Source: Terriglobia bacterium (lineage in GTDB: Bacteria > Acidobacteriota > Terriglobia > 20CM-2-55-15). Taken from it: DNA of 64,000 nt. The translations under genes were made by a program, and so were the position numbers. The notes under the pieces were generated by a model. The model did not search any database. It was not told the origin of the DNA and saw nothing but the letters and a program-made list of their open reading frames with translations. Shown one piece after another: positions 5,030 through 48,315 of this stretch; position 1 is the first letter of the stretch, and every line of letters starts with the position of its first letter. The stretch spans positions 10,202 to 74,201 of the forward strand of contig CBDBIN010000039.1 of assembly GCA_965206125.1 (NCBI GenBank). The letters run 5' to 3'.

Positions 5030-7672
5030 ATGATCCAATCCAAGGTTGTTGCGGCCACCGTGCTGATCCTCATTGCCCTGACGATACCGGCGATCGCACA
5101 GGATGATCTGACCGACGCGCAGTACGAGGAGCTTAGCCGCGCCCTCGACATGTCGGTCGAGGAAATCCGGGCCATGAACCTCGCGCCCGACGACCTGCAG
5201 ATCCTGCTGGAGGGATACACCCAAGCCATCGTTGTCGTGGGTTCCCGCGCCGAGGCGCGCACGGTCACCGCTTCGACCGTACCCGTGGACATCCTTTCCA
5301 CGTCCGACCTCACGCGGCAGGGTGTCTTCAATCTGCAGGAACAACTCCGGACCGTCGTTCCTTCATTCAATGTCAACACGCAGCCCATCAGCGACGCCTC
5401 GACCGTGGTCCGGCCGGCGATGCTGCGGAACCTGGCGCCGGACCACACGCTCGTTCTGGTGAACGGCAAGCGCCGCCACCGCTCCGCAATCATCGACTGG
5501 CACGGCGGCAACGGCGTGGCCTTCGGCTCCCAGGGGCCGGACATTTCAGCGATTCCGGCCATCGCGCTGCGGCAGGTCGAAGTGTTGCGCGACGGTGCCG
5601 CGGCGCAATACGGCTCGGACGCCATTGCCGGGGTCATGAACTTCCAGTTGAAAGACGCCGCCTCGGGCGGCGCGGTGTCGTTGAACGCCGGCACGCATCT
5701 GGAGGGTGACGGGGAAACCTACAGCGTGGCAGCCAACGTCGGCCTGCCGCTGGGCCGCGGCGGTTTCGCCAATCTCAGCGTGGAATACGGCAGCGCGAAT
5801 CCGACCAACCGGAGCGCGCCCCGCGGCGATGCCATCGCGCTCCGCGCGGCGGGCAACACCCACGTGCTGTCGGACACGCCCCAGATCTGGGGCTCGCCGG
5901 AAGTGGACGGCGATATCAAGTTCTTCGGCAACTTCGGCTACACATCCGACAGCGGTTTTCAGCCCTACGCCCACACCAACTTCGCGCGCAAGCGGGTCAC
6001 GGGCGGGTTTTTCTTCCGCAACCCGAACACGCGTGGCGGCGTCTTCAGCGGGGACGGCGGACAGACGTTGCTGGTGGGCGACCGGCAGTGGGCCGAAACA
6101 GGAATTCCGGACGCTGGCAATTGCCCGACCGTGCCGATCGTTGACAACGTGCCCGACACCAACGCGTTGGCCGCCGTCGCATCCGACGCCAGCTGCTTCA
6201 CCCTCTACAACCGGTTCCCCGGCGGGTTCACGCCCAATTTCGGCGGCGAGGCGCGGGACATGTCGGTGGTCGGCGGCATCCGCGGCGTGATTGGCGCGAA
6301 CTTCATCTGGGACGCCAGCGCCGCGGTGGGTCAGCACGAAGCCGACCTTTTCATCAACAATACCGTCAACGCCTCGCTGGGATACGACACGCCGACCGGG
6401 TTCGATCTGGGCGGCAACCGGCAGCGCGAGTTCGGCCTCAACTTCGACGTTTCATACGCCGCGACCGAAATGGTGAACATCGCCGCCGGCACCGAGTGGC
6501 GGCACGAACAGTATCGAACCACCGAAGGCGAGCCGGATTCCTGGACGGTCGGTCCCTACGGCCGCGGCCAGGGTTTCTCGGCCGGATCCAACGGCTTCTT
6601 CGGCTACGGCCCCCTGGCCGCGGGCACCTGGGGACGGGGGAACGTCGCGGCGTACACCGACCTCGAATTCAACGACATCGACGATCGATGGAGGGTCGGC
6701 GGCGCGGTACGCTTCGAGCACTTCGAGGACTTCGGCGGAACGATCAACGGAAAACTCTCCGCCCGCTACGCCTTCGTGCGGGCCAGCGTGAGCAGCGGGT
6801 TCCGCGCGCCGACGCCCGGGCAACAGAACGGTTTCAACATTTCAACGATTTTTGACCCGGCCCTCAACGATCTCATCAACAACGGCACGATCCCATCCGT
6901 CTCACCGGTGGCGGCGTTGAAAGGGGGATTGCCGCTCGAGCCGGAACGTTCGGTCAACTACAGCACGGGCGTGGTCTTCGACACCGGTCCTGTCGATTTC
7001 TCGGCCGACTACTTCCGCGTGAACGTCTCCGACCGCATCGGCATCACCCGCAACTTCCGCCTGACCAGCGGCGAGGTTGACGGCCTGCTCGCCGAGGGCA
7101 TCGACAGCGCCCGCGACCTGAAGACCTTCCGGTTCTTCACCAACGCCTTCGATACGGCGACCGAAGGGATCGACATCGTTTCGACCTACACGCCGGTCGC
7201 GCTGCGCGGCAACACGGTTCTCAGCTTCCTCTTCAACTACACCGACACCGAGGTGACCGACAACCAGAAGGGTCTGCTCAACGCGCGGCGCCTTGCCGAG
7301 TACGCCTACGCGTTGCCGCGGACGCGGTGGAACGTCGGTATCGACCAGCGGATCGGACGGGTCCAGTTGCTTGGACGCCTCAGCTACTACGGCGGCTGGT
7401 ACGACTACGACAGCGGGTTCGGAGAAGTCTTCATCCCGTCCGGTGGGATTGAGCAGGGATTTTTCGACGGCCGGCCGATCATCGACATGGAAGCCAGCAT
7501 CGCGCTCCGCGAGGACACGACGCTCGTGATCGGAGCCCAGAACGTGTTGGACACGTATCCGCAAGTCAGCGCACGCGCCGCCTCGGTCGGCGAGAAGTAC
7601 AGCGAGTACACACCCTGGGGATTCAACGGAGCGTATTTCTACACGCGCATCGCCTACACCTGGAGCCGGTGA
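5030..7672 (+). CDS. TonB-dependent receptor
   Basis: AAGGAGG at 5014-5020 then ATG 5030. Signal peptide MIQSKVVAATVLILIALTIPAIAQ. Plug-domain motifs LRNLAPDHTLVLVNGKRR and VEVLRDGAAAQYGSDAIAGVMNF. Long barrel-like remainder. Confidence 0.85.
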   Translation: MIQSKVVAATVLILIALTIPAIAQDDLTDAQYEELSRALDMSVEEIRAMNLAPDDLQILLEGYTQAIVVVGSRAEARTVTASTVPVDILSTSDLTRQGVFNLQEQLRTVVPSFNVNTQPISDASTVVRPAMLRNLAPDHTLVLVNGKRRHRSAIIDWHGGNGVAFGSQGPDISAIPAIALRQVEVLRDGAAAQYGSDAIAGVMNFQLKDAASGGAVSLNAGTHLEGDGETYSVAANVGLPLGRGGFANLSVEYGSANPTNRSAPRGDAIALRAAGNTHVLSDTPQIWGSPEVDGDIKFFGNFGYTSDSGFQPYAHTNFARKRVTGGFFFRNPNTRGGVFSGDGGQTLLVGDRQWAETGIPDAGNCPTVPIVDNVPDTNALAAVASDASCFTLYNRFPGGFTPNFGGEARDMSVVGGIRGVIGANFIWDASAAVGQHEADLFINNTVNASLGYDTPTGFDLGGNRQREFGLNFDVSYAATEMVNIAAGTEWRHEQYRTTEGEPDSWTVGPYGRGQGFSAGSNGFFGYGPLAAGTWGRGNVAAYTDLEFNDIDDRWRVGGAVRFEHFEDFGGTINGKLSARYAFVRASVSSGFRAPTPGQQNGFNISTIFDPALNDLINNGTIPSVSPVAALKGGLPLEPERSVNYSTGVVFDTGPVDFSADYFRVNVSDRIGITRNFRLTSGEVDGLLAEGIDSARDLKTFRFFTNAFDTATEGIDIVSTYTPVALRGNTVLSFLFNYTDTEVTDNQKGLLNARRLAEYAYALPRTRWNVGIDQRIGRVQLLGRLSYYGGWYDYDSGFGEVFIPSGGIEQGFFDGRPIIDMEASIALREDTTLVIGAQNVLDTYPQVSARAASVGEKYSEYTPWGFNGAYFYTRIAYTWSR

Positions 7673-23436: not shown

Positions 23437-24345
23437 TTGAGTAGGGCATGCGCGCCGAGTCGCTGTTAACCAGCGGAGGTTTCGCATGCCCTCTCGCCGA
23501 ACCGGACGTGCACCTTTCGTTATGCATCCGGCTCTCCAGAAGTCCATGTAAAGTCGGGGGCTCGCATCCAGCCGCGACGGTAGCGCTGAACCGTCAGCCA
23601 TCCCATCTGAAACTGTTCGGATCGGCCGTCTCGCCAGACCCGCCACGCAGGACGGATCGAACTCGGCTTCCGAAACCGCAACAACGATGAGACTTGCGCC
23701 TTCGGCATCTTCTTCCGTAGCCAACGCCAGAGCCGATCTCGAACATACCAGTCGAGACTGAAGAGAATCTTCTTGGCCCCGGTACAGTAACGATAGAAGT
23801 GCGCCCAACCACGGAGGATGGGATTCAGCTTCCGAAATAACTTCGGCAAAGGCCAAGGCGTCGTTGCGCGACCGGTCCACTGTTTGACCCGATAGCGCAA
23901 ATCGGCGACTTTGTGTTTCGGAATCTCGACGCGCGGCGTCCAGCCGTATCGAGGATCCCAACGCAGTCGCACGCGGTGTCCGAGAAACTCGAATCCTCGC
24001 GTTAAGGCAGTGATTCGAGTCTTCTCAGGTGACAGAGTCAATCCCATGCTGTCCATCAGCACTGCTTCCAATGCTGTCCGTTCAGCCTGAGCCTGAGCTT
24101 CAGTCCCACAGACGAGTACGACGAAATCATCAGCGTACCGGATCGGGAAGAACACGTTCCGGCCTGACCGGCGATCCGTGCTCCGAGCCTCCAGCGCCGC
24201 CTTGATCCCGCTCGATGTCCGTCGTGCCTGACGCTTGGTCTGGTGGTTCACCCACCGCTCGTACCGCTCCTCGATGATACTGAGCGCGATGTTCGCAAGC
24301 AGCGGCGAGATGACGCCCCGAACACAAAAGGTAACTTCCGTTTTG
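23437..24345 (-). mobile_element. Group II intron, 5-prime truncated (RT C-terminal half plus domains V-VI)
   Basis: RT ORF 23520..24251 extends in frame to about 24345 (VISPLLANIAL, YADDFVVL, LNPILRGWAHFYRY). Domain V GAGCCGGATGCATAACGAAAGGTGCACGTCCGGTTC lies at 23534-23499 and overlaps the RT stop. DVI-like stem AGGGCATGCG...CGCATGCCCTAC follows. Confidence 0.75.
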
Positions 24346-26134: not shown

Positions 26135-28360
<2,226 letters not shown>

Positions 28361-28509
28361 CTCAGTTGGCTCCTGGTAAGTCAGAAATTCAGTACATTTG
28401 CTTCATGCATTGGTCTCACTCTTTCCTGATATCTCCAGTCAGTCTGAAACGGACCTGGTTGATACGTCCAAGACATTATTTCTATAAGGATGATAGGATT
28501 TTACTATCA

Positions 28510-29457
28510 ATGATGAAACCCTACAACTTCTCACTTCGGCAGATTCAGTACGCAGTGACCGTGGCCGATACGAGGAACTTTCGCCGGGCTGCGGAGCGGT
28601 GCCATGTGTCTCAACCCTCACTGAGCGTGCAGGTGGCGGAGCTAGAAGCCGGGCTGGGCGTCCAGTTGTTTGAGCGCGATCGTCGTGGCGTGATGATTAC
28701 CACGGCAGGATCTGAACTCATTGACCGTATGCGGCGCGTTCTCCTTGAGGTAGACGATGTGAGAGGCGCCGCACGGCGGTTCCTGGATCCTCTAGCAGGC
28801 ACGCTACGAATCGGGGTGATACCGACCGTTGGACCCTACCTGCTCCCGACCGTCGCACCGCTACTACGCAAGGCACTTCCGCGCTTGACTCTAGCTTGGC
28901 TGGAGGACAAAACCGAGGCACTCGTTCGCCAGATCCGTCATGGAAACCTCGATGGCGGGTTGCTTGCTTTGGAAGCCGACATCGGTGACCTCACCTACGA
29001 GACGATCGGAAGAGATCCGTTCGTGCTTGCAACGCCACCGGATCACCTCCTTGGGCGGTCGTCCGCACCGATACCCTTCAGCCGATTGCGGGGCGAGCAC
29101 ATTCTTCTGCTTGATGAGGGACACTGCCTTCGGGATCAGGTTATCGAGTTTTGTAGCGGAAGAGGTGTTGAGGAACTCAATTTTCGGGCAACGAGTCTGC
29201 CGACGCTTGTGCAGATGGTCCGCGCCAACATGGGTATCACCTTGCTGCCACGCATCTCTGTGCCTACCGAAATTCTTCGGTCCGGCCTTAAGACCCGTCC
29301 AATATCACGACCGGTGCCATACCGCACCATCGTTCTGGCCTGGCGGCGGCGATCGTCTCTATTTGAAGCGATGCGGAAGATCGCCCAAACTGCGCGGCTC
29401 GCCGTTCATCGTACCCATTACAGAAAAGTACGCGGGGAAAAGAAGCAAGATCCGTGA
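28510..29457 (+). CDS. oxyR: LysR-family peroxide regulator OxyR
   Basis: Divergent from katG. LRQIQYAVTVADTRNFRRAAERCHVSQPSLSVQV LysR HTH. LLLDEGHCLRDQVIEFCSG carries the two redox cysteines spaced as in OxyR. Start ATG 28510 or 28513. Confidence 0.85.
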   Translation: MMKPYNFSLRQIQYAVTVADTRNFRRAAERCHVSQPSLSVQVAELEAGLGVQLFERDRRGVMITTAGSELIDRMRRVLLEVDDVRGAARRFLDPLAGTLRIGVIPTVGPYLLPTVAPLLRKALPRLTLAWLEDKTEALVRQIRHGNLDGGLLALEADIGDLTYETIGRDPFVLATPPDHLLGRSSAPIPFSRLRGEHILLLDEGHCLRDQVIEFCSGRGVEELNFRATSLPTLVQMVRANMGITLLPRISVPTEILRSGLKTRPISRPVPYRTIVLAWRRRSSLFEAMRKIAQTARLAVHRTHYRKVRGEKKQDP

Positions 29458-29789: not shown

Positions 29790-30224
29790 TCAAGGCAGTC
29801 TTTCGAAGGGGTCGGTGGCCGGGATACCCAAGGGGACAAAATGGCGCAGGTTGCGCGTCAGAACGGTCAGGTTATGGCTCCCTGCCGTGGCCGCGATAGC
29901 GACATCGGCAAAGCCGGGCGAATGCCCCGTCGCACGCGCCTTGTCCATCAATTTTCCCGCCAAGCGAGCCGCTGAGACATCGAACGGTAGCACCCGTTCC
30001 CCGTAGAGATGCAGCACAAGTTCAAGCCAATCCTTGAGAGCCCCAGCCCTGGAAGCGGACCCAGTCCGTTCCATCTTAGCAATCCCGTCGGAGATTTCGG
30101 CCACGGTCACCGCCGATAAGAAAAGACCGTCCGAATGCGTGTCCATCCATGTGACTAATGCCGCGGATCGTTCGGGGCGGCCAGGAGCCCCGGACGATAG
30201 CACGTTGGTGTCTACCAAGTACAA
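29790..30224 (-). CDS. vapC: PIN-domain toxin VapC
   Basis: MYLVDTNVLS start, internal acidic residues and LTVLTRNLRHF C-terminal motif. Adjacent to antitoxin gene. Confidence 0.85.
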   Translation of the reverse strand: MYLVDTNVLSSGAPGRPERSAALVTWMDTHSDGLFLSAVTVAEISDGIAKMERTGSASRAGALKDWLELVLHLYGERVLPFDVSAARLAGKLMDKARATGHSPGFADVAIAATAGSHNLTVLTRNLRHFVPLGIPATDPFERLP

Positions 30225-30233
30225 GCGGCGTTC

Positions 30234-30476
30234 CTAAAACGCGACATCCCGTGATGGGCTTGTGTCTCGCGGCGGCAGGTTTCCATCTTCCAAGGGCGAA
30301 GACAACAGCAACCGGCCGAAGGACGGCACCCGGCGGAGACGATTCCACTCATCGATCCCCAGGATGATGGCCCGGGGCTTGCCATGGCGGGTGATGACCG
30401 CTGTTTCACCGTGAGCAGCCTCTTCCACAAGTGCCGACAGCTTGGTCTTGGCCTCGCGTAACTGCACCTTTCGCAT
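30234..30476 (-). CDS. vapB: Phd/YefM-type antitoxin (VapB)
   Basis: MRKVQLREAKTKLSALVEEAAHGETAVITRHGKPRAIILGIDEWNRL is the classic Phd/YefM N-terminus. Confidence 0.85.
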   Translation of the reverse strand: MRKVQLREAKTKLSALVEEAAHGETAVITRHGKPRAIILGIDEWNRLRRVPSFGRLLLSSPLEDGNLPPRDTSPSRDVAF

Positions 30477-31253: not shown

Positions 31254-31802
31254 GTGCGCACCTCCAGGGCGTTGGTCACCACCAAGGATGCGTTCGAACT
31301 CTTAGTGCTGACGGCGGCGCGGTCCGGCGAGGTGCGCCTGGCGACGTGGGATGAGATGGACCTGCACGCTGACGTGTGGATCATCCCCGCCGCGCGCATG
31401 AAGGCCAAGCGAGATCACCGTGTGCTGCTCTCCGGGCGGGCGCTCGCGATCCTGTACGACGCACGGAGACGCAGTGATGGCACGGGCTTGGTGTTCCGCA
31501 GTCCACGCGGGAAGCCGCTCTCTGACATGACGCTGTCGAAATTGATCAAAGAACTCGGCATCGCCGCCGTGCCGCATGGGTTCCGGTCGAGCTTCCGGGA
31601 CTGGGCCGCGGAGCAAACGAATACGCCTCGTGAGGTGGTCGAAGCCGCGCTCGCCCATACGGTGCGCAACCCGACAGAGGCGGCCTACGCCCGCAGTGAT
31701 CTCTTCGAGCGTCGGCGCCGCCTGATGGACGATTGGGCGGCCTATCTCGAAGAGTGCCGATCACAGGTTCGGGCGACAGATGGCCGCCGCTCCAGCCTGT
31801 GA
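31254..31802 (+). pseudogene. P4-type tyrosine integrase, C-terminal catalytic half only
   Basis: LLVLTAARSGEVRLATWDEMDL (catalytic Arg), HGFRSSFRDWAAE (HxxR), AYARSDLFERRRRLMDDW (catalytic Tyr region). N-terminal SAM-like domain absent. Confidence 0.8.
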
Positions 31803-31864: not shown

Positions 31865-32440
31865 CTAGGTCAAATGCACCGAGCGAGGGTCGACGAAGAG
31901 GTCGCCGGCAGGATGCGGCTGCTCCACACGCTGTAGGTACCCCTTCTTCTGCAGCGAAACCAAGCGGTTTCCTGCTGCCGTTTTCTCGATATTGACCCGT
32001 TCGGCAAAGCCAAAAGCGGTAACGGTCCCACCAGCTTGCGAGACCAGGCTCAGGGTTTCACGATCCTTCGCGGTGAGTACACCGACGGGTTCTGCGTCCT
32101 TGAGGTCGGCGGAAGAGGAGCATACGAACATGGCAACGTTCCTCGACTCAGCGACATCGCGAATCACGCTTCGGGTGTCCTCATCCTCACTGCAAATGAA
32201 CAACGAGAAATTCCCGTATCGCCCGGCTTTCACGTCTTCACCGACGGTCACAACGATATTCAGCAGGACCCCCGGTGCCGGGCGAGCGGCGTCCATATGG
32301 AGGACACCGAGCATAGGTCCGTGCTTCCGATCGTGTGGCATGAACCTGTGAATGAGCTGATCAACGCAAGGATCATCCACAACAGTAGGACCACTACCCA
32401 CAGGAGCGAATTTGACCTCGAACGGAATCGTCCCGGACAT
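31865..32440 (-). CDS. Hypothetical protein with C-terminal winged-helix-like region
   Basis: 191 aa. DRETLSLVSQAGGTVTAFGFAERVNIEKTAAGNRLVSLQKKGYLQRVE looks MarR/wHTH-like. N-terminal 120 aa unassigned. Divergent from the Ubl operon. Confidence 0.5.
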   Translation of the reverse strand: MSGTIPFEVKFAPVGSGPTVVDDPCVDQLIHRFMPHDRKHGPMLGVLHMDAARPAPGVLLNIVVTVGEDVKAGRYGNFSLFICSEDEDTRSVIRDVAESRNVAMFVCSSSADLKDAEPVGVLTAKDRETLSLVSQAGGTVTAFGFAERVNIEKTAAGNRLVSLQKKGYLQRVEQPHPAGDLFVDPRSVHLT

Positions 32441-32674: not shown

Positions 32675-32703
32675 TTGACAGCCATGGCACACATGCGCAT
32701 AAT
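32675..32703 (+). promoter_or_regulatory. Near-consensus sigma70 promoter for the Ubl operon
   Basis: TTGACA (32675-32680), 17-nt spacer, CATAAT (32698-32703). Overlaps palindrome ATGCGCAT. TCCAC-N8-GTGGA follows. AAGGAG RBS lies 7 nt before ATG 32746. Confidence 0.55.
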
Positions 32704-32745
32704 ATCCACTGTGCATCGTGGACACCCTGGGCAAGGAGACAAGAA

Positions 32746-33012
32746 ATGAGCGACAAGCGTTTTGAGATCACATTCATTATTAATGGCCAGCCGTTTGAGG
32801 TCAAGGTCGGTCTGGACGAACAGATCGGGGAGGCCGTGGAAGAGGCGCTGAAGGTCTCGGGCAATTCCGGACAGGCCGCAGCGCGGTGGGAGCTGCGGGA
32901 CGAATCCGGCCAACCCATTGATACCGGGAAGAAGATCGGTGAATCGGGCATTGTTGCAGGCGCCAAACTACTCCTGAGCCTCAAGGCCGGCGTTGGCGGT
33001 AGCCGTGTCTGA
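32746..33012 (+). CDS. Ubiquitin-like (beta-grasp-sized) protein with C-terminal GG plus 3-residue tail
   Basis: 88 aa, ends LLLSLKAGVGG-SRV. First gene of an E2/JAB/E1 operon. Good RBS. Confidence 0.6.
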   Translation: MSDKRFEITFIINGQPFEVKVGLDEQIGEAVEEALKVSGNSGQAAARWELRDESGQPIDTGKKIGESGIVAGAKLLLSLKAGVGGSRV

Positions 33013-33733
33013 GCCGCAGTTCGCGGACCCGGCTGTTTCTCGACGGAAATTCGACAGGGAAATAGCCGAGTTTCGGTCGCAGGCCGACGAATACAGACGC
33101 CGCGGCTGGTTGCTCGAGGAAGCCGAATTCCCCCATGCGCTGGTGATTCTGACAACCGCCAAGACGCAACCCATCTCGATCCTGTGCGGGGTCTGGTTCG
33201 ACTACTCGAACTATGACGCGGCACCGCCATCCGTGCGTCTCGTCCACCCGTTGACCCGTGAGCCTTACACATGGTCGGAGGTGCCAACGCGGTTGCCGCG
33301 AATGCCAGCGCCGCCGGGCGTCGCACAGGCGCTGCCGCCGGGCGTCGCGCAGGCGCTGCCACCGGGCGTCGCGCAGGCGCTGCCACCGGGCGTCGCGCAG
33401 GCGCTGCCACCGGGCGTCGCGCAGGCGCTGCCACCGGGCGTCGCGCAGGCGCTGGCGCAAGGTGTCGCGCAAGCGCAACTGGTGGTGCCGATACCGCTCA
33501 TGCAAGCCTACGGCGACGACGACATTCCTTTTCTGTGCCTCGCCGGCGTGCGGGAATACCACGAGCATCCTGCCCACAGCGGCGACCACTGGTTATCGCA
33601 CCGGACTTCCGGCGCGGGGCGTCTTGTCCGGCTTCTCGAGGTCATCTCCAAGTACGGCCCGGAGACCATCCTCGGTTTTGAGGTCGAGATGACACCGAAA
33701 ATCCGACTCCGTGCGGCCAGTCCACCGGAATGA
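32993..33733 (+). CDS. E2-like (UBC-fold) conjugating enzyme with internal octapeptide repeat
   Basis: AAPPSVRLVHP (PPxxxF/HPN-like) and DIPFLCLAGVREYHEHPAHSGDHW (candidate catalytic Cys, codon 33536-33538). Start TTG 32993 or GTG 33005 overlapping the Ubl stop. Confidence 0.6.
   Translation: MAVAVSEPQFADPAVSRRKFDREIAEFRSQADEYRRRGWLLEEAEFPHALVILTTAKTQPISILCGVWFDYSNYDAAPPSVRLVHPLTREPYTWSEVPTRLPRMPAPPGVAQALPPGVAQALPPGVAQALPPGVAQALPPGVAQALPPGVAQALAQGVAQAQLVVPIPLMQAYGDDDIPFLCLAGVREYHEHPAHSGDHWLSHRTSGAGRLVRLLEVISKYGPETILGFEVEMTPKIRLRAASPPE
33311..33478 (+). repeat. 24-bp in-frame tandem repeat, 6 near-perfect units plus 1 degenerate
   Basis: Unit CCRCCGGGCGTCGCRCAGGCGCTG. Units 3-6 (33359-33454) are identical. 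Encodes PPGVAQAL x6 then AQGVAQAQ. Confidence 0.95.
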
Positions 33734-34215
33734 GTACTTTCGAGTTGATTCGAGAGTTTGTTGTTTCGGGTGACCTTTGTGACGCGACGGACCGGCAGTT
33801 ACGTGCAGCTGGACTCGATGGAAACGAGCGCTTCATACTCTGGACCGGCATAGTCCGCGACGACCGCTTGCTTGTCAGGACGATGCACTGCCCGAAACAG
33901 ACTGCCTATCGCCTGGCCAGCGGGTTGTGCGTGCGCGTCGAGGCGGACGAGCTTCATCGGCTCAACGTGTGGCTGTACGAGAACGCCGAACGGCTTGCCA
34001 TACAGGTGCACTCGCACCCCACCGAAGCCTTTCACTCGGATACCGACGACGCCTACCCCATGGTGACGACGCTTGGGGGGTTGTCTCTGGTGGTGCCCGA
34101 CTTCGCCCGGTACGGCGTTCGGGGTCCCGAAACCGCGCTGTACCGCTTGTCGATTACGGGATGGCTTGGGCTGTCGCCAACGGAGGCCAGGCGTGTCCTG
34201 CGCCTGGAGGATTGA
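33730..34215 (+). CDS. JAB/MPN (JAMM) metallopeptidase
   Basis: 161 aa. IQVHSHPTEAFHSDTDD is the HxH...SxxD JAMM motif, with upstream Glu in GNERFILW. The start ATG shares ATGA with the E2 stop. Confidence 0.85.
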   Translation: MSTFELIREFVVSGDLCDATDRQLRAAGLDGNERFILWTGIVRDDRLLVRTMHCPKQTAYRLASGLCVRVEADELHRLNVWLYENAERLAIQVHSHPTEAFHSDTDDAYPMVTTLGGLSLVVPDFARYGVRGPETALYRLSITGWLGLSPTEARRVLRLED

Positions 34216-34217
34216 CC

Positions 34218-35699
34218 ATGGCGATTCCGGACTACTTTCAACGTAATGCCGTCGCCATTTCTCAAGCCATTTCCGGCCTCGACGAACAGCGTCTTGAGGC
34301 GCGGTTGGCCGATGTGTGTATTGGCGTCACACTCGGGCCTGACGCTGGCGACGAAGAGGGTCAGGCCATGGCCGATTTGCTGGTTCGCTTATTGGCACGG
34401 CTCTATCCGTCGCTAGTCATTCGCGAGGAGGGAGCAGGTGGCGTCGGGGACCAGGTCAGTGCGTTGGCGCGCCGAATCAACCCGCGTATCGACCTGTCGG
34501 GGCAGCCGACAATAGAGGTGGTCGTCGGCACAGCGCGTCCGCGCTGGAAGACCGCTCGAACCGTGTTCGTGGGATCCAAGAGCTGGAGTGCCAGGCTGTC
34601 GACACATGACACGCAAGGATGCGGGGCGAGCAACAACCCGTTCGGGGCGGGGTTGGCGTCCTGTCTGGCGGCGGCCGACGTGTTCAGACACGTGTTCCTT
34701 CCCGGAGCAGAACAACTGGACGGCGAATACGAGATCGCCGTTCCAAATGTCGGCGAATGGGCTACTGACGACGAGGATGTCCATGGGAACGTCGGCAGCG
34801 TCGTTCTGGCCGGCGCCGGCGCCATCGGCAACGCCGCCGCATGGGCATTGTCCCGCACTCGGGTGGAGGGGTCGATCGAGATCGTCGATCACGAGTCGGT
34901 GGACCTCGGCAATCTGCAACGGTACGTACTGGCGGAACGTGACGACAAGGAGAAGCCAAAGGCCTCTTTCGTCGCCGGGGGATTCAATGGCACGCTCAGC
35001 GCGAGTGCCCATGAATGCACGCTTGCCGAGTTTCTGCAGAAGAAGAATCACAAGGTCGACAACCTCCTGCTGGCGCTCGACTCCGCGAAGGATCGTTGTG
35101 CTGCTCAGGCGTCATTGCCCCGCCGAGTAGCCAACGCGTGGACCCAGCCGGGCGACCTGGGTGTTTCCTCGCACGACTTTCTGGAAGGCGCTTGCGTCAC
35201 CTGCCTGTACCTGCCGGATGGCGAGCAGAAGAACGAGGATCAGATCATCGCGGAATCCTTCGGTGTGCCGGATCGGTTGATGCAGGTTCGGACGCTGCTG
35301 TACCAGAATGCAGGTGCGCCAAGGGATCTGCTCGTGGCGATTGCCACGGCACGGGACTTACCGCTCGCAAAGCTCCTGCCGTTCGAGGGCCGCCCGTTGC
35401 TGGCCCTGTACACGGAAGGCTTTTGCGGCGGCGCCGTGATCCCGCTAGGTGACCTTGGAAGGCCGGCGAATGACGTCCATGTTCCCTTGGCCCACCAGTC
35501 GGCGTTGGCCGGCGTGCTGCTGGCCGCCGCCGGTGTACGCATGGGCCTGAGCGGACGTGTGGACAGTGTCGTCACGCGGTATGACGTACTCAAGCCGCAG
35601 AAACGGTTTCAGGTGTCTCCAGCGGCAAAACATGCCGGGGAAAGGTGCATCTGCCAGGACGCAGATTATCGTGAGGTGTACCGCAGAAAGTACCAGTGA
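34218..35699 (+). CDS. E1-like ThiF-family adenylyltransferase
   Basis: ATG 34218, 2 nt after the JAB stop. VVLAGAGAIGNAAAWAL Rossmann loop, IEIVDHESVDLGNLQRYVL, Cys-rich GACVTCLYLPDG. The track start 33927 is a spurious extension over JAB. Confidence 0.8.
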   Translation: MAIPDYFQRNAVAISQAISGLDEQRLEARLADVCIGVTLGPDAGDEEGQAMADLLVRLLARLYPSLVIREEGAGGVGDQVSALARRINPRIDLSGQPTIEVVVGTARPRWKTARTVFVGSKSWSARLSTHDTQGCGASNNPFGAGLASCLAAADVFRHVFLPGAEQLDGEYEIAVPNVGEWATDDEDVHGNVGSVVLAGAGAIGNAAAWALSRTRVEGSIEIVDHESVDLGNLQRYVLAERDDKEKPKASFVAGGFNGTLSASAHECTLAEFLQKKNHKVDNLLLALDSAKDRCAAQASLPRRVANAWTQPGDLGVSSHDFLEGACVTCLYLPDGEQKNEDQIIAESFGVPDRLMQVRTLLYQNAGAPRDLLVAIATARDLPLAKLLPFEGRPLLALYTEGFCGGAVIPLGDLGRPANDVHVPLAHQSALAGVLLAAAGVRMGLSGRVDSVVTRYDVLKPQKRFQVSPAAKHAGERCICQDADYREVYRRKYQ

Positions 35700-35911: not shown

Positions 35912-36625
35912 GTGGGTGGCACTGAGGGCAGCGATCTCTTGTGGTACGAATCACTGTCGGACGACGAGTCGTGGTTTTCGCTGTGGAGCGGGTACATCCG
36001 CTGCGTCTGCAGCGGATGTACCCGCTCCACAGCGGAACAATGCCCCGTTTGCGGCGAGGACCCGCCGAATCTGGACTGGAAGGTCGTGCGCGACACTGAC
36101 GGCAACGAATACCGTGTGCCACCTGCCTTCTGTGGGGCCGAGGGCCGGTACGAGGATTGGATCTACCTGCGAATGCTGGAACGGGAGTGGCTAAGGCCCG
36201 TCGAGGCGGAACTATATGACTCGATCCCAGAGGACCATCGCCCTTCCGCGCGAGCGATTGTCGTGCTGATGTTTTGGAGTTACTTCGAGACGCGTATCGA
36301 AAGGTTGTTTCGGGAGACGGTGAAGGCGGTGCCTGAGAAGGTGATGGACCACCTTCTGGATCGCTATTCCTCCGTCGGTGCGAGGATGGACAGGCTCTAT
36401 AAGATTGTTTTTTCAACGACGTATCGGGCCGATCTCAACGATCTCGGGTATGGCAAAGTAGCGGCGCTCCTAGGAAGGGTGCAAAAGTGTCGAAATAAAT
36501 TTACGCACGGCCACCCGGAAGCGATTGACGATGCACTGGTCGAAGAGCTAGTGCCAGGTCTGAAGGACGAACATGAGGGTTGGATCGCCGTCTTCAACAG
36601 GCGCCTGAAGGAAGTGCGCAAGTAA
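35912..36625 (+). CDS. Zinc-ribbon protein with HEPN-like C-terminal helical domain
   Basis: AAAGGAG then GTG 35912. CVCSGC...CPVCG zinc ribbon. C-terminal LLGRVQKCRNKFTHGHP has an RNxxxH (Rx4H) HEPN-type motif. The track start 35696 reads through the antisense TBDR scar. Confidence 0.55.
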   Translation: MGGTEGSDLLWYESLSDDESWFSLWSGYIRCVCSGCTRSTAEQCPVCGEDPPNLDWKVVRDTDGNEYRVPPAFCGAEGRYEDWIYLRMLEREWLRPVEAELYDSIPEDHRPSARAIVVLMFWSYFETRIERLFRETVKAVPEKVMDHLLDRYSSVGARMDRLYKIVFSTTYRADLNDLGYGKVAALLGRVQKCRNKFTHGHPEAIDDALVEELVPGLKDEHEGWIAVFNRRLKEVRK

Positions 36626-36899
36626 TCGGGAATGCAGCACGGCTGATCGGGCGCGGTGACAGACGAACGAGGCGCACACCGGTTCGAGCGCGGCACTCCA
36701 CCGGCCGGCACGGTGATTCCGTCACCTGGACGATTTCGGGCCGACCAGCGTGCGGCAGTTCGTCGACCGGCCAGACGTGCTCGGAGAGCGCACCGCCGAT
36801 CAAGGGCAGCAGGACGCCTTCGGGCAGGTGGACGCTTGGCTCTCGGTGCTAGGCTTGAGGTGATTCGTGACTGCGGCGTCAAGTGTCAAGATTCGCTCC

Positions 36900-37691
36900 A
36901 TGGACATGCCGATCATCGATAGGGTGTTCGGCATGGAGGGCGGCTTTGTGCTCGATTTCTCAAATCGGACTTTCGCGGAGTTCTTTCACGACGAGGTCAA
37001 CGTCGACATCGACAATCCCCATTGGGCGGTTCAGGGTGGGAGCAAGGCCAAGCGCCTTCGCTACTACTTGCGCCAGGCAGACCGTCCAGAAGCCCTCGAC
37101 ACGCTGAATGCATTGTGGGAATACCGCGAGGCGAGCAGGGTTACCGCCGACTATCCAGAACTAGATGACTCGGTACTCACGGCCTACTTCCGGATCATCG
37201 AACGGCTCGGGGGCAAGCCACCAGAGTCTGCGGTGCCCACCGCCGCGCATCGAGAACTGCGTATCGATGTCGCCGCAACGTCTGCGCTCGCCGCCCAATT
37301 GCTCGCCGTTTCCACCATGGACCCGCAAGCCCGTGGCTATGCCTTCGAGAAGTTCCTGAAGGATGTGTTCGACGCCTATGGGATGTCCGCGCGCGCCTCC
37401 TTCCGTCTCACGGGCGAGCAGATCGACGGCAGTTTCGTGCTCGGCGAACAGACCTATTTGCTCGAAGCGAGATGGAGGAACGCGAAGGTCGATGTGGAGA
37501 CGCTTCGTGCCTTCAACGCCAAGGTTGAGGACAAGGCCAGTTGGTCCCGCGGCCTTATCATCAGCCAAAGCGGCTTCACAGCGGACGGACTGCACGCATT
37601 TGGACGCGGCAAGAGTGTCGTTTGTATGAATGGACTCGATCTGCACGAGGTCTTGTCCGGCCCGCTTGATCTGGCTGAAGTCATCGCATAA
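36900..37691 (+). CDS. Mrr-like (PD-(D/E)xK) restriction endonuclease domain protein with N-terminal helical domain
   Basis: GYAFEKFLKDVFDAYG...EQIDGSFVLGEQTYLLEARWRN...SRGLIISQSGFT matches the Mrr_cat-type layout. N-terminal GGFVLDFSNRTFAEFF module. Confidence 0.6.
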   Translation: MDMPIIDRVFGMEGGFVLDFSNRTFAEFFHDEVNVDIDNPHWAVQGGSKAKRLRYYLRQADRPEALDTLNALWEYREASRVTADYPELDDSVLTAYFRIIERLGGKPPESAVPTAAHRELRIDVAATSALAAQLLAVSTMDPQARGYAFEKFLKDVFDAYGMSARASFRLTGEQIDGSFVLGEQTYLLEARWRNAKVDVETLRAFNAKVEDKASWSRGLIISQSGFTADGLHAFGRGKSVVCMNGLDLHEVLSGPLDLAEVIA

Positions 37692-38006
37692 AAGGTCAGG
37701 CGCGCAGCAGAAACCGGCGTGGCGTTCGTACCTGTGCGCGATCTCAATGTTCCCGCAACCCGAGCCCCTGCGAAGCCAGCGAGCGATTGAATACAGCAGC
37801 CCAGACGAAGCTCGCATACTGAATCCATGGTTCCAAACGCTGGGCTCTGGACCGACTACTGTCGGCAGGTCATTCGAACGATCCAAGGGTTTCGTGCCGG
37901 AGCACTTGAGAAAGCGGTTCCAGCCTTGGGCCAGATTCGACGACGTGACCCACGACTGTCCTATGTTCATAATAGGGAGTCATGGTCCCCCACATGGTCC
38001 CCATAT

Positions 38007-38291
38007 TCCCCAAGCCCGCGTGGGAAGCTGCTCTCCGACGCAACGCTGAGCCAGCTGATCAAAGAACTCGGCATCGCCGCCGTGCCGCATGGGTTCCGGT
38101 CGAGCTTCCGGGACTGGGCCGCGGAACGGACGAACACACCCCGCGAAGTGGTCGAGGCCGCACTCGCCCATACGGTACAGAATCCCACAGAGGCGGCCTA
38201 CGCGCCAACTGATCTCTTCGAGCGTCGGTGCCGCCTGATGGACGACTGGTCCGCCTACCTCTGTGGAACCCTCGGGCCCGTGATGTTATGA
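38007..38291 (+). pseudogene. P4-type integrase 3-prime fragment (second copy)
   Basis: SPRGKLLSDATLSQLIKELGIAAVPHGFRSSFRDWAAERTNTPREVVEAALAH... About 88 percent nucleotide identity by eye to 31520-31760, including a ~69-bp identical run. Confidence 0.8.
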
Positions 38292-38507: not shown

Positions 38508-39572
38508 GTGTTCATCTCGAGCGTCATGGCGGAACTTGGCGAGGAGCGCGCGGCCGCAGCCAATGGTGTTCGCTCGCTGGGTGCGAAGCCCGTGATGTTC
38601 GAGGAATTCGGCGGACGCGACGCGGACCCGTTGGACGCCTACCTGGGTGAGGTCGAGACCAGCCAGATCTACGTCGGCATTCTCGGCCAGAGCTACGGCA
38701 GGCCCCTACCTACACGCTTCTCTGCAACGCACACGGAGTTCCGACACGCCGAGCAGCAGGGGCTGCGGATGGCGGTCTGGGCGCTCGCTACGCAGCATCG
38801 TGAGGGGCCACAGCAGTCGTTCCTCGACGAGGTGCGTGTGTTTCACGTGGTCCCTGCGTTCCGTTCTCCTGCGGATCTCGAGCGGCAGGTTGCCGAGCGG
38901 CTTCGCGGTATCGCGGCGGAAGATCTTGCCCCGTGGACCAAGCTGGGCTCCATTGTGTTCCGGGCCACCAAGGTCGTGCACGTCGGAAACGAGATTTCCG
39001 TTACAGCGCGTGTCCAAAGCGATGACGTAGCACACGCTTTAGAGACCGCCGCTCCGAATGATTTCGGTGCAGGAGAGGAACACCGCTTCACATGGGCCGG
39101 GCGCTGTCGCTGTGTTCGAGTGGCGAGCGTCGGGAGCACCACGACGACCGCGCGGTCCAAGTTGATGCAGCTGCAATTGGGGATCGTCGATGGGCACCAA
39201 GACCACATGCTTGAGTTCTCATTCGATGACAAGACGCCAGACGACGTGACCGACGTGGCGCTTCGCACTGCCTTGTTCGGCGAACCGAACCCGTTGGCCA
39301 GACAGCACATGGACTTCATGGTCGAAATGCCGGACCCTCTTGAGCCTTTGCGCGATGCAAGCGCACCGGACGAGATCGTGCGTTCGCTAGCCGAAGTGAT
39401 GATCATCGACGAGTTGGTTGGCTCCGGCCGGGCGGCCAGAGTGACGCAGTTCAAACTCGGGGCCTCCGTAGGAGGCCTGCGGAAGCTCGAACTAGAATGG
39501 GAACCGCGGCGCCGGTACGTTAACGAAAAACGCGGGCGCAGACACTTGGTAGAGGGACGGGTGCGACTCTAA
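38508..39572 (+). CDS. DUF4062-domain protein with unassigned C-terminal 220 aa
   Basis: VFISSVMAELGEERAAAANGVRSLGAKPVMFEEF...QIYVGILGQSYG...SATHTEFRHA matches the DUF4062 N-terminal pattern. GTG start. Confidence 0.6.
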   Translation: MFISSVMAELGEERAAAANGVRSLGAKPVMFEEFGGRDADPLDAYLGEVETSQIYVGILGQSYGRPLPTRFSATHTEFRHAEQQGLRMAVWALATQHREGPQQSFLDEVRVFHVVPAFRSPADLERQVAERLRGIAAEDLAPWTKLGSIVFRATKVVHVGNEISVTARVQSDDVAHALETAAPNDFGAGEEHRFTWAGRCRCVRVASVGSTTTTARSKLMQLQLGIVDGHQDHMLEFSFDDKTPDDVTDVALRTALFGEPNPLARQHMDFMVEMPDPLEPLRDASAPDEIVRSLAEVMIIDELVGSGRAARVTQFKLGASVGGLRKLELEWEPRRRYVNEKRGRRHLVEGRVRL

Positions 39573-40090
39573 CATTCCGAAGTGGGCCGCCACGAAACAC
39601 GGTGGCGGCGGCCGGCGTGGCTGGAGGAAGCTCCACCTTGGCTGCGATCGACCGGGACTTCGCCGCCCCCTGGAATCAGCTGTGTGGCGCGAACGTTTTG
39701 CTGGTAACTAAACAGGAGGCTTGCGGCGCGATGCCAAGAAAGACGTTTATTTCATAAGGCTTGGCGGATTCGGTCTCGCGCGATCGATCCGACGCGAGGT
39801 GCGAGATTACAAACCTTCGGTCAATCAGCTTAGTACTGTTCTCTCCGATAGCGAGAAGCACCGACTTGGTTTCTGACCGAGGTCGACGAGGTCGAGATCA
39901 TCAGACTGCGCAGCTCTACCGATAGCCTGAATAATGCGGCACTTCGAAAACACGTGATGGTAAAGGACACCGCCTTACTGAATCTCGTCATCGAGGTGCC
40001 AGATAGATGACCCGTGTCTTTGTGAGTTCCGTGTCCGTCGGCCTCGAAGCCATTCGCGCACAGATCATTGTCGATCTTCAAACGGCTAAC

Positions 40091-40806
40091 TTCGACTGAA
40101 GCCGGGCGCTCACGGATCGAGATCATGTCTTCGATCTGTCCCTTTCCATGGCCTTTCCGGCTCGCTTTTCCAGATCGGCGAATCGTGCGTCTTGTCCGCA
40201 GATACTGAGTCAGTTCTTTCTTCAAAACCCCGCGGGCCTGGACAAAAAGCCTGCGATAGATCGTCTCGTGGGACACGTGAAGCGACTCGTCTTCCGGATA
40301 TGAGTGTTTCAGCCAACCGGCGATTTGCTCGGGCAACCAGACCTGCCGCAGCTTCTCTTCAACAAGCTGCCGTAAGCGGGGACTGCGGGCTAACCGGCAC
40401 GACTTCGGACGGCGCGCCCGCTCCCAGGTCCGCTCATCGGCTTCCGATGCCCGATAGCTATCAGAGCCCCCGTTTCGGCTGACCTCCCGGCTCACCGTCG
40501 ATGGCGACCGCCCAGTCGCACGGCAATCGGCCGGATCGATTCTTTGGCCGCAATACCTCTGGAGATCTCTTCACGTTCGACCAGAGTCAGTGCCCGCGAT
40601 GACCGGCAACGGGACTGCGGACGGATGCCCCCGTACACGGCCAGTTGACGATGAATCGCCGATCCCCCTCTGTCCAGCACGCGTCCGATCGATTGGGACG
40701 ACTCCCCCCGCTGCCAGCGATCCCACACCTCCACCCGCTCGGTCGCTGTGAACCATCGCCGCTTCCTCATCCGCTTGTTCTTTCCTTTCTTGGCCATACA
40801 CTTCAC
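40091..40806 (-). pseudogene. IS30-family transposase N-terminal part, frameshifted, DDE domain missing
   Basis: Track ORFs 40492..40806 and 39830..40495 are abutting frames. HTH regions, WLPEQIAGWLK, VSHETIYRRLF, ISIRERPASVE. Homology ends at about 40091. Confidence 0.7.
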
Positions 40807-46327: not shown

Positions 46328-48315
46328 GTGCGCCGTGAAAGGTGAGTCAACGCAGCCGGTGAAAGTCCGGTCCAAGGAGGTGTCGGTAGACCTTGGTAGC
46401 TACCCAGGCGGTGGCAAGGGCGACCAACCCATCGAAGCCCTGGGGACAGAGACCCGCCTTGGGCGGGTTTGCAAGCGTGCGGGCCGCAACGCGAGTGAAG
46501 CCTGAGCAGGCCTCGAAAGGTTGAATGCGAGCGCCGAGTCTCCTCTCATTAGACGAAGGCCCATGAGGGTGGCCAGATGAACCGACAAGAGACGGTCGCC
46601 CTGCTCGCCGGGGTAGTGGGCGCAGCACGTACGCACGCGGGGACTCGCAACACGGGAAACCTGTTGTGCTGCCGGGGAGACCTGGCAACGGCTCCAACTG
46701 GGAGGCGGGCGCGACAGGCGTCGGAGGGGCTCATACTACCGATGAACCCGGGTAATGCCGGGGGAGGGAAGGAGCCCTAGTTCGGGGTGCGTTTGAACGA
46801 GTTGAGATGAGGAGATTGGCGTGAGCCTGGCAACTCCAGAAAAGATTCGGAAGCTCCAACGAGCGCTCTACGTGAAGGCCAAGCATGAGCCGACACGGCG
46901 ATTCCACTTCTTATATGACAAGGTGTGGCGTGAAGACATTCTGACCCACGCCTACGCGCGTTGCCGATCCAACGGTGGGGCGCCGGGCGTGGATGGGGAA
47001 ACCTTTACGCACATTGAGGGATATGGGGTGGACCGCTGGCTCAACACGGTACGGGAGGAGGTGCGAACAGGACGCTACAGACCGCAACCGGTCAAACGGG
47101 TGATGATTCCAAAGTCTGGTGGCGTGGGCCAACGGCCGCTGGGGATTCCGACTATCCGTGACAGGGTAGTGCAAACCGCGGCGAAGTTGGTGCTCGAACC
47201 GATTTTCGAAGCAGACTTCGATGGGGCGGTCTACGGGTATCGTCCCAAACGGAGCGCGCTGGATGCGGTTCGAACCGTTCATCGGGCAATTGATGAGGGG
47301 CACACCAAAATAGTCGATGCCGATCTATCGAAATACTTCGATACGATTCCCCACCCCGAGCTGATCAAGTGCGTTGCACGACGTGTTAGCGACGGGAAGA
47401 TGCTGCATCTGATCAAGATGTGGTTGAAGACGCCGGTCGAGGAGACCGGCGAACGGGGACATCGGCGGATGAGTGGCGGCAAGAAGGCGACGCGGGGAAC
47501 ACCGCAGGGTGGAGTGGCATCGCCATTGTTGGCGAACATCTACATGCATCGTTTCATCAAGGCGTTTCGCAAGCATGGTTTGGATCGTCGGTACGACGCG
47601 GTGCTGGTGACCTACGCGGACGATTTCGTGGTCCTGTGTCGGCATGGCGCCGGTGAGGTCCTCGAAACGACTCGGCGATGGATGGCCAGCATCGGTCTCA
47701 CGCTGAACGAGACCAAGACGCGTGTATGCGACGCCCGATGCGAGCCCTTCGACTTCCTCGGCTATACCTTCGGGCCGATGTACTCTCCGCGAACCGGCGG
47801 ACGCTACAACGGTGCGCGGCCTTCCAAGAAGGCTGTGGCCTCGGTCAAGGAGCATATCCGGCGACGCCTGCGGTCCGGTAATCACGCGCCATGGGAAGAC
47901 GTGGCGCGGGGCCTGAACCGCATGGTGCGGGGATGGTCGGCCTACTTCAGCTATGGGTCGGTGACGCAGGCGCGACACGGGGTGAAACTGTATCTCTATC
48001 ACGCCGTCCGTCGCTTCCTTCGGCGTCGGCACAAAGTGGCCGGGTCTGGTTACCGGCGGTTCCCCACCGATGAGGTATTTGGGAAGCTGGGCGTGCTGTC
48101 TCCCGAATCCTGTCCGCATGAGGTCTGGTCGGCAATGCGCACGCCTTGACGTGAAACCCGTCCGAGAGCCGGGTGCGGGAAATCCGCACGCCCGGTTCGA
48201 TGAGCGGGGAGGAGAAACGGAGCGATGGACTTCTCGGCGAGACCAGCAACGAAAGACGCTGGCCGCTATCGGCGCCGCCGGTCCTGTACGCCACCGCGCT
48301 TCTCCTCGACTCTAC
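46328..48315 (+). mobile_element. Full-length group II intron (about 1.99 kb)
   Basis: 5-prime GTGCG at 46328. Intact RT ORF. Domain V GAGCCGGGTGCGGGAAATCCGCACGCCCGGTTC at 48166-48198. Proposed 3-prime end ...TCGACTCTAC at 48315. Confidence 0.8.
46821..48149 (+). CDS. Group II intron reverse transcriptase/maturase
   Basis: 442 aa. RPLGIPTIRDRVVQ, DADLSKYFDTIPH, GTPQGGVASPLLANIYM, TYADDFVVL, domain X LNRMVRGWSAYFSYG. Confidence 0.9.
   Translation: MSLATPEKIRKLQRALYVKAKHEPTRRFHFLYDKVWREDILTHAYARCRSNGGAPGVDGETFTHIEGYGVDRWLNTVREEVRTGRYRPQPVKRVMIPKSGGVGQRPLGIPTIRDRVVQTAAKLVLEPIFEADFDGAVYGYRPKRSALDAVRTVHRAIDEGHTKIVDADLSKYFDTIPHPELIKCVARRVSDGKMLHLIKMWLKTPVEETGERGHRRMSGGKKATRGTPQGGVASPLLANIYMHRFIKAFRKHGLDRRYDAVLVTYADDFVVLCRHGAGEVLETTRRWMASIGLTLNETKTRVCDARCEPFDFLGYTFGPMYSPRTGGRYNGARPSKKAVASVKEHIRRRLRSGNHAPWEDVARGLNRMVRGWSAYFSYGSVTQARHGVKLYLYHAVRRFLRRRHKVAGSGYRRFPTDEVFGKLGVLSPESCPHEVWSAMRTP

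Follow-up and report, generated by a model that had tools for sequence, protein, structure and literature searches.

The window analysed here is a stretch of 64,000 nt from a Terriglobia bacterium (GenBank assembly GCA_965206125.1, contig CBDBIN010000039.1, positions 10,202 to 74,201). It carries on its plus strand four consecutive genes for a ubiquitin-like protein (Ubl), an E2 conjugating enzyme, a JAB-type peptidase and an E1 activating enzyme, which we refer to as bilA, bilB, bilC and bilD after the bacterial ISG15-like (Bil) conjugation systems. An earlier note on this DNA had described the same genes as a compact Bil/Bub-type operon. All positions given below are those of the window, and the features that concern the operon are collected in Table 1.

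Open reading frame (ORF) analysis places bilA, bilB, bilC and bilD on the same strand between positions 32746 and 35699 and indicates that they are translationally coupled. Specifically, the TGA stop codon of bilA (33010-33012) falls within the start region of bilB, bilB and bilC overlap by an ATGA at 33730-33733, and the bilC stop codon (34213-34215) is separated from the ATG of bilD at 34218 by a gap of 2 nt. The four genes stand behind a near-consensus promoter and a ribosome-binding site (RBS). This layout, including the coupled junctions, is as the earlier note had drawn it, and the motifs that it quoted were all found again (PPSVRLVHP, FLCLAGVREYHEHPAH, HSHPTEAFHSDTD, GAGAIGN and NLQRY). 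Promoter-type sites occur three times in 6.8 kb, compared with 1.0 +/- 1.0 in shuffled sequences, and the -35 box is kept in the window and in the related loci L001, L003, L004, L006 and L012, in all of which the rest of the intergenic DNA is unalignable, as well as in L002.

Table 1 Features of the bil locus, with positions in the window
Feature	Position	Strand	Basis
Promoter TTGACA-17-CATAAT, sigma-70-type	32675..32703	+	11/12 match
Palindromic operator-like site TCCAC-N8-GTGGA	32705..32722		starts 2 nt after the -10 box
RBS AAGGAG, 7 nt ahead of the bilA ATG	32733..32738	+	sequence reading
bilA, 88-aa single-domain Ubl precursor	32746..33012	+	DUF2604 6.7e-22; PDB 8TYX_A/8TYZ_B
bilB, CEHH-family E2	33005..33733	+	Metal_CEHH PF14455 1.2e-49; PDB 8TYZ_C 1.3e-41
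In-frame tandem repeat, 24 bp x 7.0, within bilB	33310..33476	+	Tandem Repeats Finder, 94% matches, score 271
bilC, 161-aa JAB/JAMM peptidase, predicted deubiquitinase (DUB) and Ubl-precursor processing enzyme	33730..34215	+	PDB 8TYX_B DUB(BilC) 4.9e-33
bilD, 493-aa multidomain E1	34218..35699	+	PDB 8TYZ_A 7.4e-98; Prok-E2_C PF14459 2.1e-25; ThiF 5.3e-11
Divergent gene for a 191-aa protein, candidate dedicated regulator	31865..32440	-	weak MarR_2, residues 129-176, E 4e-4

Family assignment of the four proteins

The combination of protein families at this locus, in the order Ubl-E2-DUB-E1, is the one described for Type II BilABCD (formerly CEHH/6C), for which structures of the proteins of Ensifer aridi TW10 are available (PDB 8TYX, 8TYY, 8TYZ and 8TZ0; Chambers et al., bioRxiv 10.1101/2023.09.26.559546). 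We compared each protein of the window operon with these crystallised homologs by a sequence search of PDB chains. Residues 5-85 of BilA match Ubl(BilA) of 8TYX_A/8TYZ_B with an E value of 1.2e-12, and a single DUF2604 match in Pfam spans residues 3-85, so that a beta-grasp fold is predicted by homology to a solved structure. The C-terminus of BilA reads ...LKAGVGG-SRV, from which the reactive glycine is predicted to be G85 (E. aridi G97) and the tail S86-R87-V88 to be cut off; K80 aligns with K92, the self-conjugation lysine of the E. aridi protein. Consistent with this notion, the Gly is conserved universally in Type II Ubls and up to nine residues, themselves not conserved, come after it (Chambers et al.), and the C-terminal Gly of BilA aligns across 11 related loci in which the tails range from 0 to ~20 residues. 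The 88-aa protein is thus well described as a Ubl precursor with a di-glycine and a three-residue tail, as had been proposed.

BilB matches E2(BilB) of 8TYZ_C in two stretches separated by the repeat, and its catalytic C178 together with E184, H186 and H191 (E. aridi C138, E144, H146 and H151) is invariant in 30 orthologs. The E2 assignment of the earlier note holds, whereas its length probably does not. The ORF, which ends at 33733, gives 246 aa from a TTG at 32993, the length the note had given, and 242 aa from a GTG at 33005; its alignment with residues 1-3 of E. aridi BilB makes the latter (Met-Ser-Glu-Pro-Gln) the likelier start. BilC has the active-site residues of the JAMM family, namely E33 and the H-x-H...S-x-x-D zinc site formed by H94, H96, S103 and D106, of which E33 and D106 correspond to the residues of the same numbers mutated in E. 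aridi. Residues 1-492 of BilD align with residues 1-506 of E1(BilD), that is, over the full length of the protein, and retain R9 (E. aridi R9), R235 (R246), the catalytic C403 (C417) and the zinc ligands C326, C329, C477 and C479 (C340, C343, C491 and C493); by the same homology BilD would comprise an inactive adenylation domain (IAD), an active adenylation domain (AAD) and a mobile Cys domain. The JAB/MPN and ThiF/E1 assignments of the earlier note are borne out by these matches. Taken together, all of the residues that have been mutated or structurally described in the E. aridi Bil proteins are conserved in the window operon.

Two sets of database matches could have suggested a different system. 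Read at face value, the Pfam labels Prok-E2_C (on BilD) and metal-binding domain (on BilB) describe an E2-E1 fusion with an accessory metal-binding protein. This is ruled out by the E. aridi structures, in which the CEHH protein is the true E2 and the 'Prok-E2_C' region is an inactive adenylation domain (Chambers et al.). The PADLOC Bil models, in turn, gave only weak matches to BilB, BilC and BilD (1e-4 to 1e-11, with 2.8e-12 for BilC), and the PADLOC BilA model did not match the window Ubl. Weak matches of this kind would on their own have pointed to a distant or novel system, a notion overturned by the PDB sequence search and the literature: the proteins of the Type II crystal structures match those of the window at 1e-12 to 7e-98, far more strongly than the PADLOC models, which therefore appear to represent Type I.

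The locus has the Type II gene order, a CEHH E2 (PF14455) with its Cys, Glu, His and His, a multidomain E1, a Ubl ending in Gly and a tail, and a JAMM site. On these grounds the operon is almost certainly an intact member of the Type II BilABCD family, where the grouping into Type II as opposed to Type I was judged from match scores and the Type II-specific Glu and His rather than from a tree. Taking the expression signals into account as well, we consider the locus to be an intact Type II BilABCD operon, probably under repressor control, that encodes a ubiquitination-like pathway in full, the probability being about 0.9. A Ubl-E2-JAB-E1 operon of the Bil kind, with a Ubl precursor trimmed by a JAB peptidase, is what the earlier note had envisaged, and the PDB and Pfam matches support it. 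None of the three outcomes that the note had named as refuting this came about: the searches gave beta-grasp homology for the 88-aa protein, E2 homology with a catalytic Cys for BilB, and ThiF/MoeB scores below the cut-offs for BilD. Of the label Bil/Bub-type, the first half stands and the second does not, there being neither a DUF6527 protein nor any fusion protein. The subtype, which had been left open, is settled as Type II by the Pfam families, the crystallised homologs and the conserved residues. Two of the features then thought to set this copy apart are normal for the family: in 78% of Type II operons the Ubl consists of one beta-grasp domain (Gong et al., bioRxiv 10.1101/2024.11.21.623966), and neither an E3 nor an effector is part of a Type II system (Chambers et al.). 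The repeat expansion of the E2 is real, and it is the only true peculiarity among the differences that had been claimed.

The likeness to the operon of E. aridi TW10 extends to gene order, to the four protein families, to the full-length E1 alignment with its catalytic and zinc residues, to a single beta-grasp Ubl ending in Gly and a short tail, and to a long, variable E2 loop ahead of the catalytic Cys. The two differ in the Ubl tail (SRV, three residues, in the window; A, one residue, in E. aridi) and in the length of the E2 loop, which is ~40 residues longer here owing to seven octapeptide repeats. Nor do the closest relatives of the window operon lie in Rhizobiaceae; they are found in metagenome-assembled genomes (MAGs) that bear the labels Tectimicrobiota, Vicinamibacterales/Acidobacteriota, Palauibacter and Pseudomonadales. 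The operon is ordinary for its family and of an already described kind, with the exception of the repeat in the E2 loop and of an undescribed neighbouring gene for a candidate regulator. The main value of the result is a negative one, in that the locus can be filed as Type II BilABCD and the question of its subtype closed. A search with the E2 gave 766 matches at E <1e-10, and this survey suggests that Type II Bil is far more widespread among uncultured lineages outside the rhizobia than the original catalogue of 162 operons would indicate.

The divergent winged-helix gene, the palindrome and the E2 repeat

Divergent from bilA lies a conserved gene, absent from the account of the earlier note, whose 191-aa product has an N-terminal alpha/beta domain and a C-terminal winged-helix domain that is MarR-like. 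Homologs of this gene adjoin the operon in eight of the ten genome loci for which upstream DNA is available (L001-L004, L006-L008 and L012), the Mesorhizobium loci L009 and L010 having no homolog beside the operon. A search with the family returned 297 matches, none of them named, and four of four further contigs of the family, chosen for diversity, carry the gene beside a Type II Bil operon. Directly downstream of the -10 box, a palindrome (TCCAC-N8-GTGGA) forms an island of invariant columns in otherwise unalignable intergenic DNA. It occurs once upstream of bilA in the window and in L001-L004, L006, L012 and L014, and it was not found in L009 or L010, which lack the regulator. From this co-occurrence we would give even odds that the 191-aa protein and the palindrome form a repressor-operator pair. 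If they do, the conserved regulator and operator offer a handle on the signal that turns the operon on. A minus-strand promoter-like sequence (TTGACC-17-AATAAT, 10/12) at 32776-32804, within bilA, is directed towards the regulator gene and could be its promoter or a chance match.

Some published Bil and Bub operons are accompanied by regulators of the CapH/CapP or CapW kinds (Chambers et al.; Gong et al.), whereas the gene accompanying the window operon encodes a 191-aa winged helix-turn-helix (wHTH) protein. Identity of this protein with CapH/CapP or with CapW/BrxR was considered and rejected, as neither PADLOC scans of 30 family members nor Pfam, which gave only the weak MarR_2 match, returned a sequence match. 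The PADLOC scans gave only weak matches in the wHTH region (CARF3, CasR and AbiEi), and a CARF/Csa3 identity was likewise dropped, its recurring weak matches not being significant. The protein resembles Csa3-type CARF-wHTH and MarR-type regulators in its small two-domain layout, alpha/beta followed by a C-terminal wHTH, but its N-terminal domain has no significant match and membership of these groups is not established. An AlphaFold2 (AF2) model of the protein has a mean predicted local distance difference test score (pLDDT) of 59.8, and a Foldseek search of the PDB with this model gave nothing below an E value of 0.04, the top match having a template-modelling (TM) score <0.4. A profile search against PDB sequences gave only a MarR wHTH at E 0.08. 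The gene is not mentioned in the Bil literature searched.

The repeat array within bilB encodes six exact PPGVAQAL octapeptides and a degenerate seventh, four of the units being identical in DNA sequence. It sits in the E2 loop that leads from strand beta4 to the catalytic Cys, which was found to be disordered and hypervariable and has been proposed to be the target-recognition element (Chambers et al.). In the AF2 model of BilB (mean pLDDT 45.9, which is poor), loop residues 92-175 have a pLDDT of ~30 and are without secondary structure. The octapeptide repeat is absent from the E2 proteins of E. aridi and Mesorhizobium and is present as an array of about two units in the closest genome loci. 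The 120 best E2 homologs differ in length by steps of 4-8 residues, and unit number, as counted by eye, varies from 0 to 8 in 41 of them; the units also vary in sequence (PPGIAQAL, PPGGAQAL and AQGVAQAL). A metagenomic allele that is 99% identical to that of the window (L017) has eight substitutions in 760 nt and a clean 48-bp gap in the array, corresponding to two units, and this near-identical yet shorter allele argues for recent slippage, with the reservation that L017 is a low-coverage short-read contig and that repeats can collapse in such assemblies.

We regard an adaptive role for repeat number as rather unlikely. The broader idea that the slippage-prone array is a fast-evolving knob for target range or reach, of the contingency-locus type, and that the operon is switched by an undescribed sensor-wHTH regulator acting on a palindrome at the transcription start, is doubtful to a similar degree. 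As far as we checked, the copy-number polymorphism of the octapeptide and the conserved regulator and operator are details new to the literature searched. Alleles that are 99% identical yet differ in the repeat number of a proposed recognition loop constitute a natural allelic series, which could bear on how an E2 that works without an E3 selects its substrates in Type II Bil. These observations, made on the side of the classification, could thereby help with a question that concerns the whole family, namely what Type II Bil systems target and how substrates are chosen in the absence of an E3.

Proposed pathway and competing explanations

By homology to the E. aridi orthologs, for which the biochemistry has been demonstrated, and from the conserved residues, we infer the following pathway. 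BilC would cleave the 88-aa pro-BilA after Gly85 and release Ser-Arg-Val, whereupon BilD would adenylate Gly85 by means of R9 and R235, and BilA would then become thioester-linked to Cys403 in the mobile Cys domain. From there BilA would be handed to Cys178 of the CEHH-type E2 BilB, to which His191 is adjacent, and BilB, working without an E3, would attach it to lysines of target proteins; BilC could also strip such conjugates. Expression probably starts from the conserved promoter (32675-32703) and may be controlled by the divergent 191-aa winged-helix protein acting on TCCAC-N8-GTGGA over the transcription start. Given homology at the ~40-50% level and complete conservation of the residues concerned, the enzymatic cascade is very likely.

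The biological role can be approached through the Type I BilABCD of Collimonas sp. OK412, which has the order Ubl-E2-DUB-E1 and the chemistry of the window operon, likewise lacks an E3, and defends against phage by targeting the central tail fibre (Hor, Wolf and Sorek, bioRxiv 10.1101/2023.09.04.556158). It is the only Bil system for which a target and an antiphage phenotype are established. By analogy, the window operon may disturb phage assembly through the tagging of a phage structural protein. Together with the genomic context, this analogy makes an antiphage role reasonably likely, and we place it no higher because the literature searched reports neither a target nor a demonstrated antiphage phenotype for any Type II Bil.

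That absence is the first of several points that weigh against the operon being an intact, repressor-controlled system directed at phage. The palindrome was not found in three loci whose copies of the regulator are divergent (L007, L008 and L013), and the link between regulator and operator is a purely comparative one. The model of the regulator reaches a moderate quality, and no significant relative in sequence or fold was found for the N-terminal domain of this protein. The model of the E2 is poor, so that the disorder of its loop rests mainly on the published E. aridi structure. Lastly, truncated integrases and broken insertion sequence (IS) elements nearby, together with decayed relatives elsewhere, mean that this copy could be silent even though its sequence is unbroken.

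The strongest competitor to an antiphage role keeps the biochemistry and changes the biology: the operon would tag host proteins as part of a stress response. This possibility was raised by Gong et al., who call the targets and consequences of Type II conjugation unknown. It is also in keeping with the finding that E. aridi BilABCD conjugates its Ubl non-specifically to Escherichia coli proteins and to itself (Chambers et al.), and a dedicated regulator of the sensor type would suit a stress regulon. The surroundings of the operon, however, are mobile and of the defence type (genes for an Mrr-like nuclease and a DUF4062 protein, a PIN/Phd pair, and fragments of integrases and IS elements), and the related locus L016 adjoins ThsB-TIR and a caspase-like peptidase. 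Moreover, the closest relatives of the E1 (82-94% identity) lie in MAGs labelled Tectimicrobiota, Vicinamibacterales, Acidobacteria and Palauibacter, and MAGs that bear the labels of several different phyla contain the Bil operon intact; the occurrence of such close, near-identical operons under different phylum labels indicates horizontal spread. Set against these observations and against the antiphage activity of Type I Bil, a stress role seems to us fairly unlikely.

Decay of the operon into a non-functional remnant is a second possibility, to which the structure of the region lends some weight. A 6.5-kb module comprising the regulator, bilABCD and two unrelated genes is bracketed by 249-nt direct repeats (31500-31748 and 38013-38261) that are 85% identical and that are the 3' fragments of truncated tyrosine-integrase genes (31254-31802 and 37827-38291), which suggests tandem or nested island insertions. 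A broken IS30-like transposase lies near, and related operons have decayed: in L002, bilC is split by a ~1.25-kb insertion (5591-6843) and the regulator is on the strand of the operon; in L012 (5912-6990) the E2 and JAB matches are split; and L015 (1299-5023) has no called E2 gene and carries, between bilD and the regulator, a gene for an rve transposase. In the window, by contrast, the four ORFs are full length relative to the crystallised homologs, every catalytic residue is intact, and so are the promoter, the RBS and the coupled junctions. A remnant is accordingly improbable.

Membership in another E1/E2 system, be it Type I Bil, Bub, a Type II CBASS with Cap2/Cap3 or 6A-MBL, is less probable still. 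It draws on weak PADLOC matches to BilB, BilC and BilD and to Cap2-type E1-E2 models (~2e-7 at best) and on a weak NCBIfam match to 6A-MBL cap2_3 (24 bits against a cut-off of 320). Type I Bil forms a separate clade with an ISG15-like Ubl of two beta-grasp domains and an E2 in which E144 and H146 of the CEHH motif are not conserved, whereas the window Ubl is a single-domain protein and the window E2 has both E184 and H186. Bub operons of both types (I and II) resemble that of the window as bacterial Ubl/E1/E2 conjugation operons with diverse Ubls, but they have a DUF6527 protein (BubE) and Ubl-E2, JAB-E1 or E2-E1 fusions (Gong et al.). Here the four proteins are separate, and no DUF6527 match was found among the neighbours within about 5 kb of the operon. 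The Cap2-model matches are limited to E1 residues 194-305 and, like the 6A-MBL match, to the Rossmann region, and no CD-NTase or effector gene was found among the neighbours of the operon. The matches to the Type II crystal structures, finally, are stronger by many orders of magnitude. A sulfur-carrier pathway (ThiS/MoaD with ThiF/MoeB, or CysO-Mec) in which no protein is conjugated would fit the match of E1 residues 194-331, the nucleotide-binding region, to ThiF/MoeB NCBIfam models and the fact that JAB peptidases also process CysO-type carriers, but the scores of 17-34 bits lie far below cut-offs of 150-650 (33.8 against 275 for the top match) and this explanation therefore fails, the more so as the E1 aligns over its full length with E. 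aridi BilD, which has IAD, AAD and Cys domains, the operon includes an E2 that keeps its catalytic Cys, and no sulfurtransferase, thiamine, molybdopterin, cysteine or cofactor-biosynthesis gene stands beside the operon.

Neighbouring genes and minor observations

Two genes follow bilD within the 6.5-kb module. The first (35912-36625, plus strand) is an ORF of 237 aa that begins with GTG behind an AAAGGAG RBS, contains a CxxC...CxxC motif and matches no family; the second (36867-37691, plus strand) encodes a protein of 274 aa that carries an Mrr_cat restriction-endonuclease domain (3.4e-9) at its C-terminus. We considered both as parts of the Bil system and rejected this, as neither has a homolog in the 12 related Bil loci; they seem to be cargo of their own and may form another defence pair. 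Within the first of these ORFs, ~280 nt past the bilD stop codon, lies an inverted repeat (35976-36037) whose 29-nt arms, near-perfect in their pairing, enclose a loop of 4 nt. It is unique in the window, folds as RNA at -69 kcal/mol (z -9.3), and has arms that encode ...LWSGYIRC and CSGCTRST.... Such an element might act on the Bil transcript as a terminator-like barrier, or it might be a palindromic insertion.

Further out, a gene at 38508-39572 (plus strand), which lies ~3 kb downstream of the operon, encodes a protein with a DUF4062 domain (1.6e-20). DUF4062 is also found near the Bil operon of the unrelated locus L014 (1-1012), which may be a coincidence or may mark a recurrent island neighbour. 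Two adjacent ORFs at 39830-40806 (minus strand), which have only a weak HTH_32 match, are apparently the halves of a frameshifted IS30-type transposase. A ParA gene also lies in the vicinity of the module, and there are no tRNA genes in the window. Upstream of the island is a type II toxin-antitoxin pair (29790-30476, minus strand), in which the toxin has a PIN domain (2e-15) and the antitoxin is of the Phd/YefM family (1e-15). Beyond this pair, reading of the translations alone suggested a 741-aa catalase-peroxidase (KatG)-like protein (26135-28360, minus strand) and, divergent from it, a 363-aa LysR-type (OxyR-like) ORF (28366-29457, plus strand), both probably core-genome genes that border the island. 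Two group II intron reverse transcriptases complete the picture, one of them a full-length reverse transcriptase/maturase (46821-48149, plus strand; RVT_1 7e-38 and GIIM) and the other truncated (23520-24251, minus strand).

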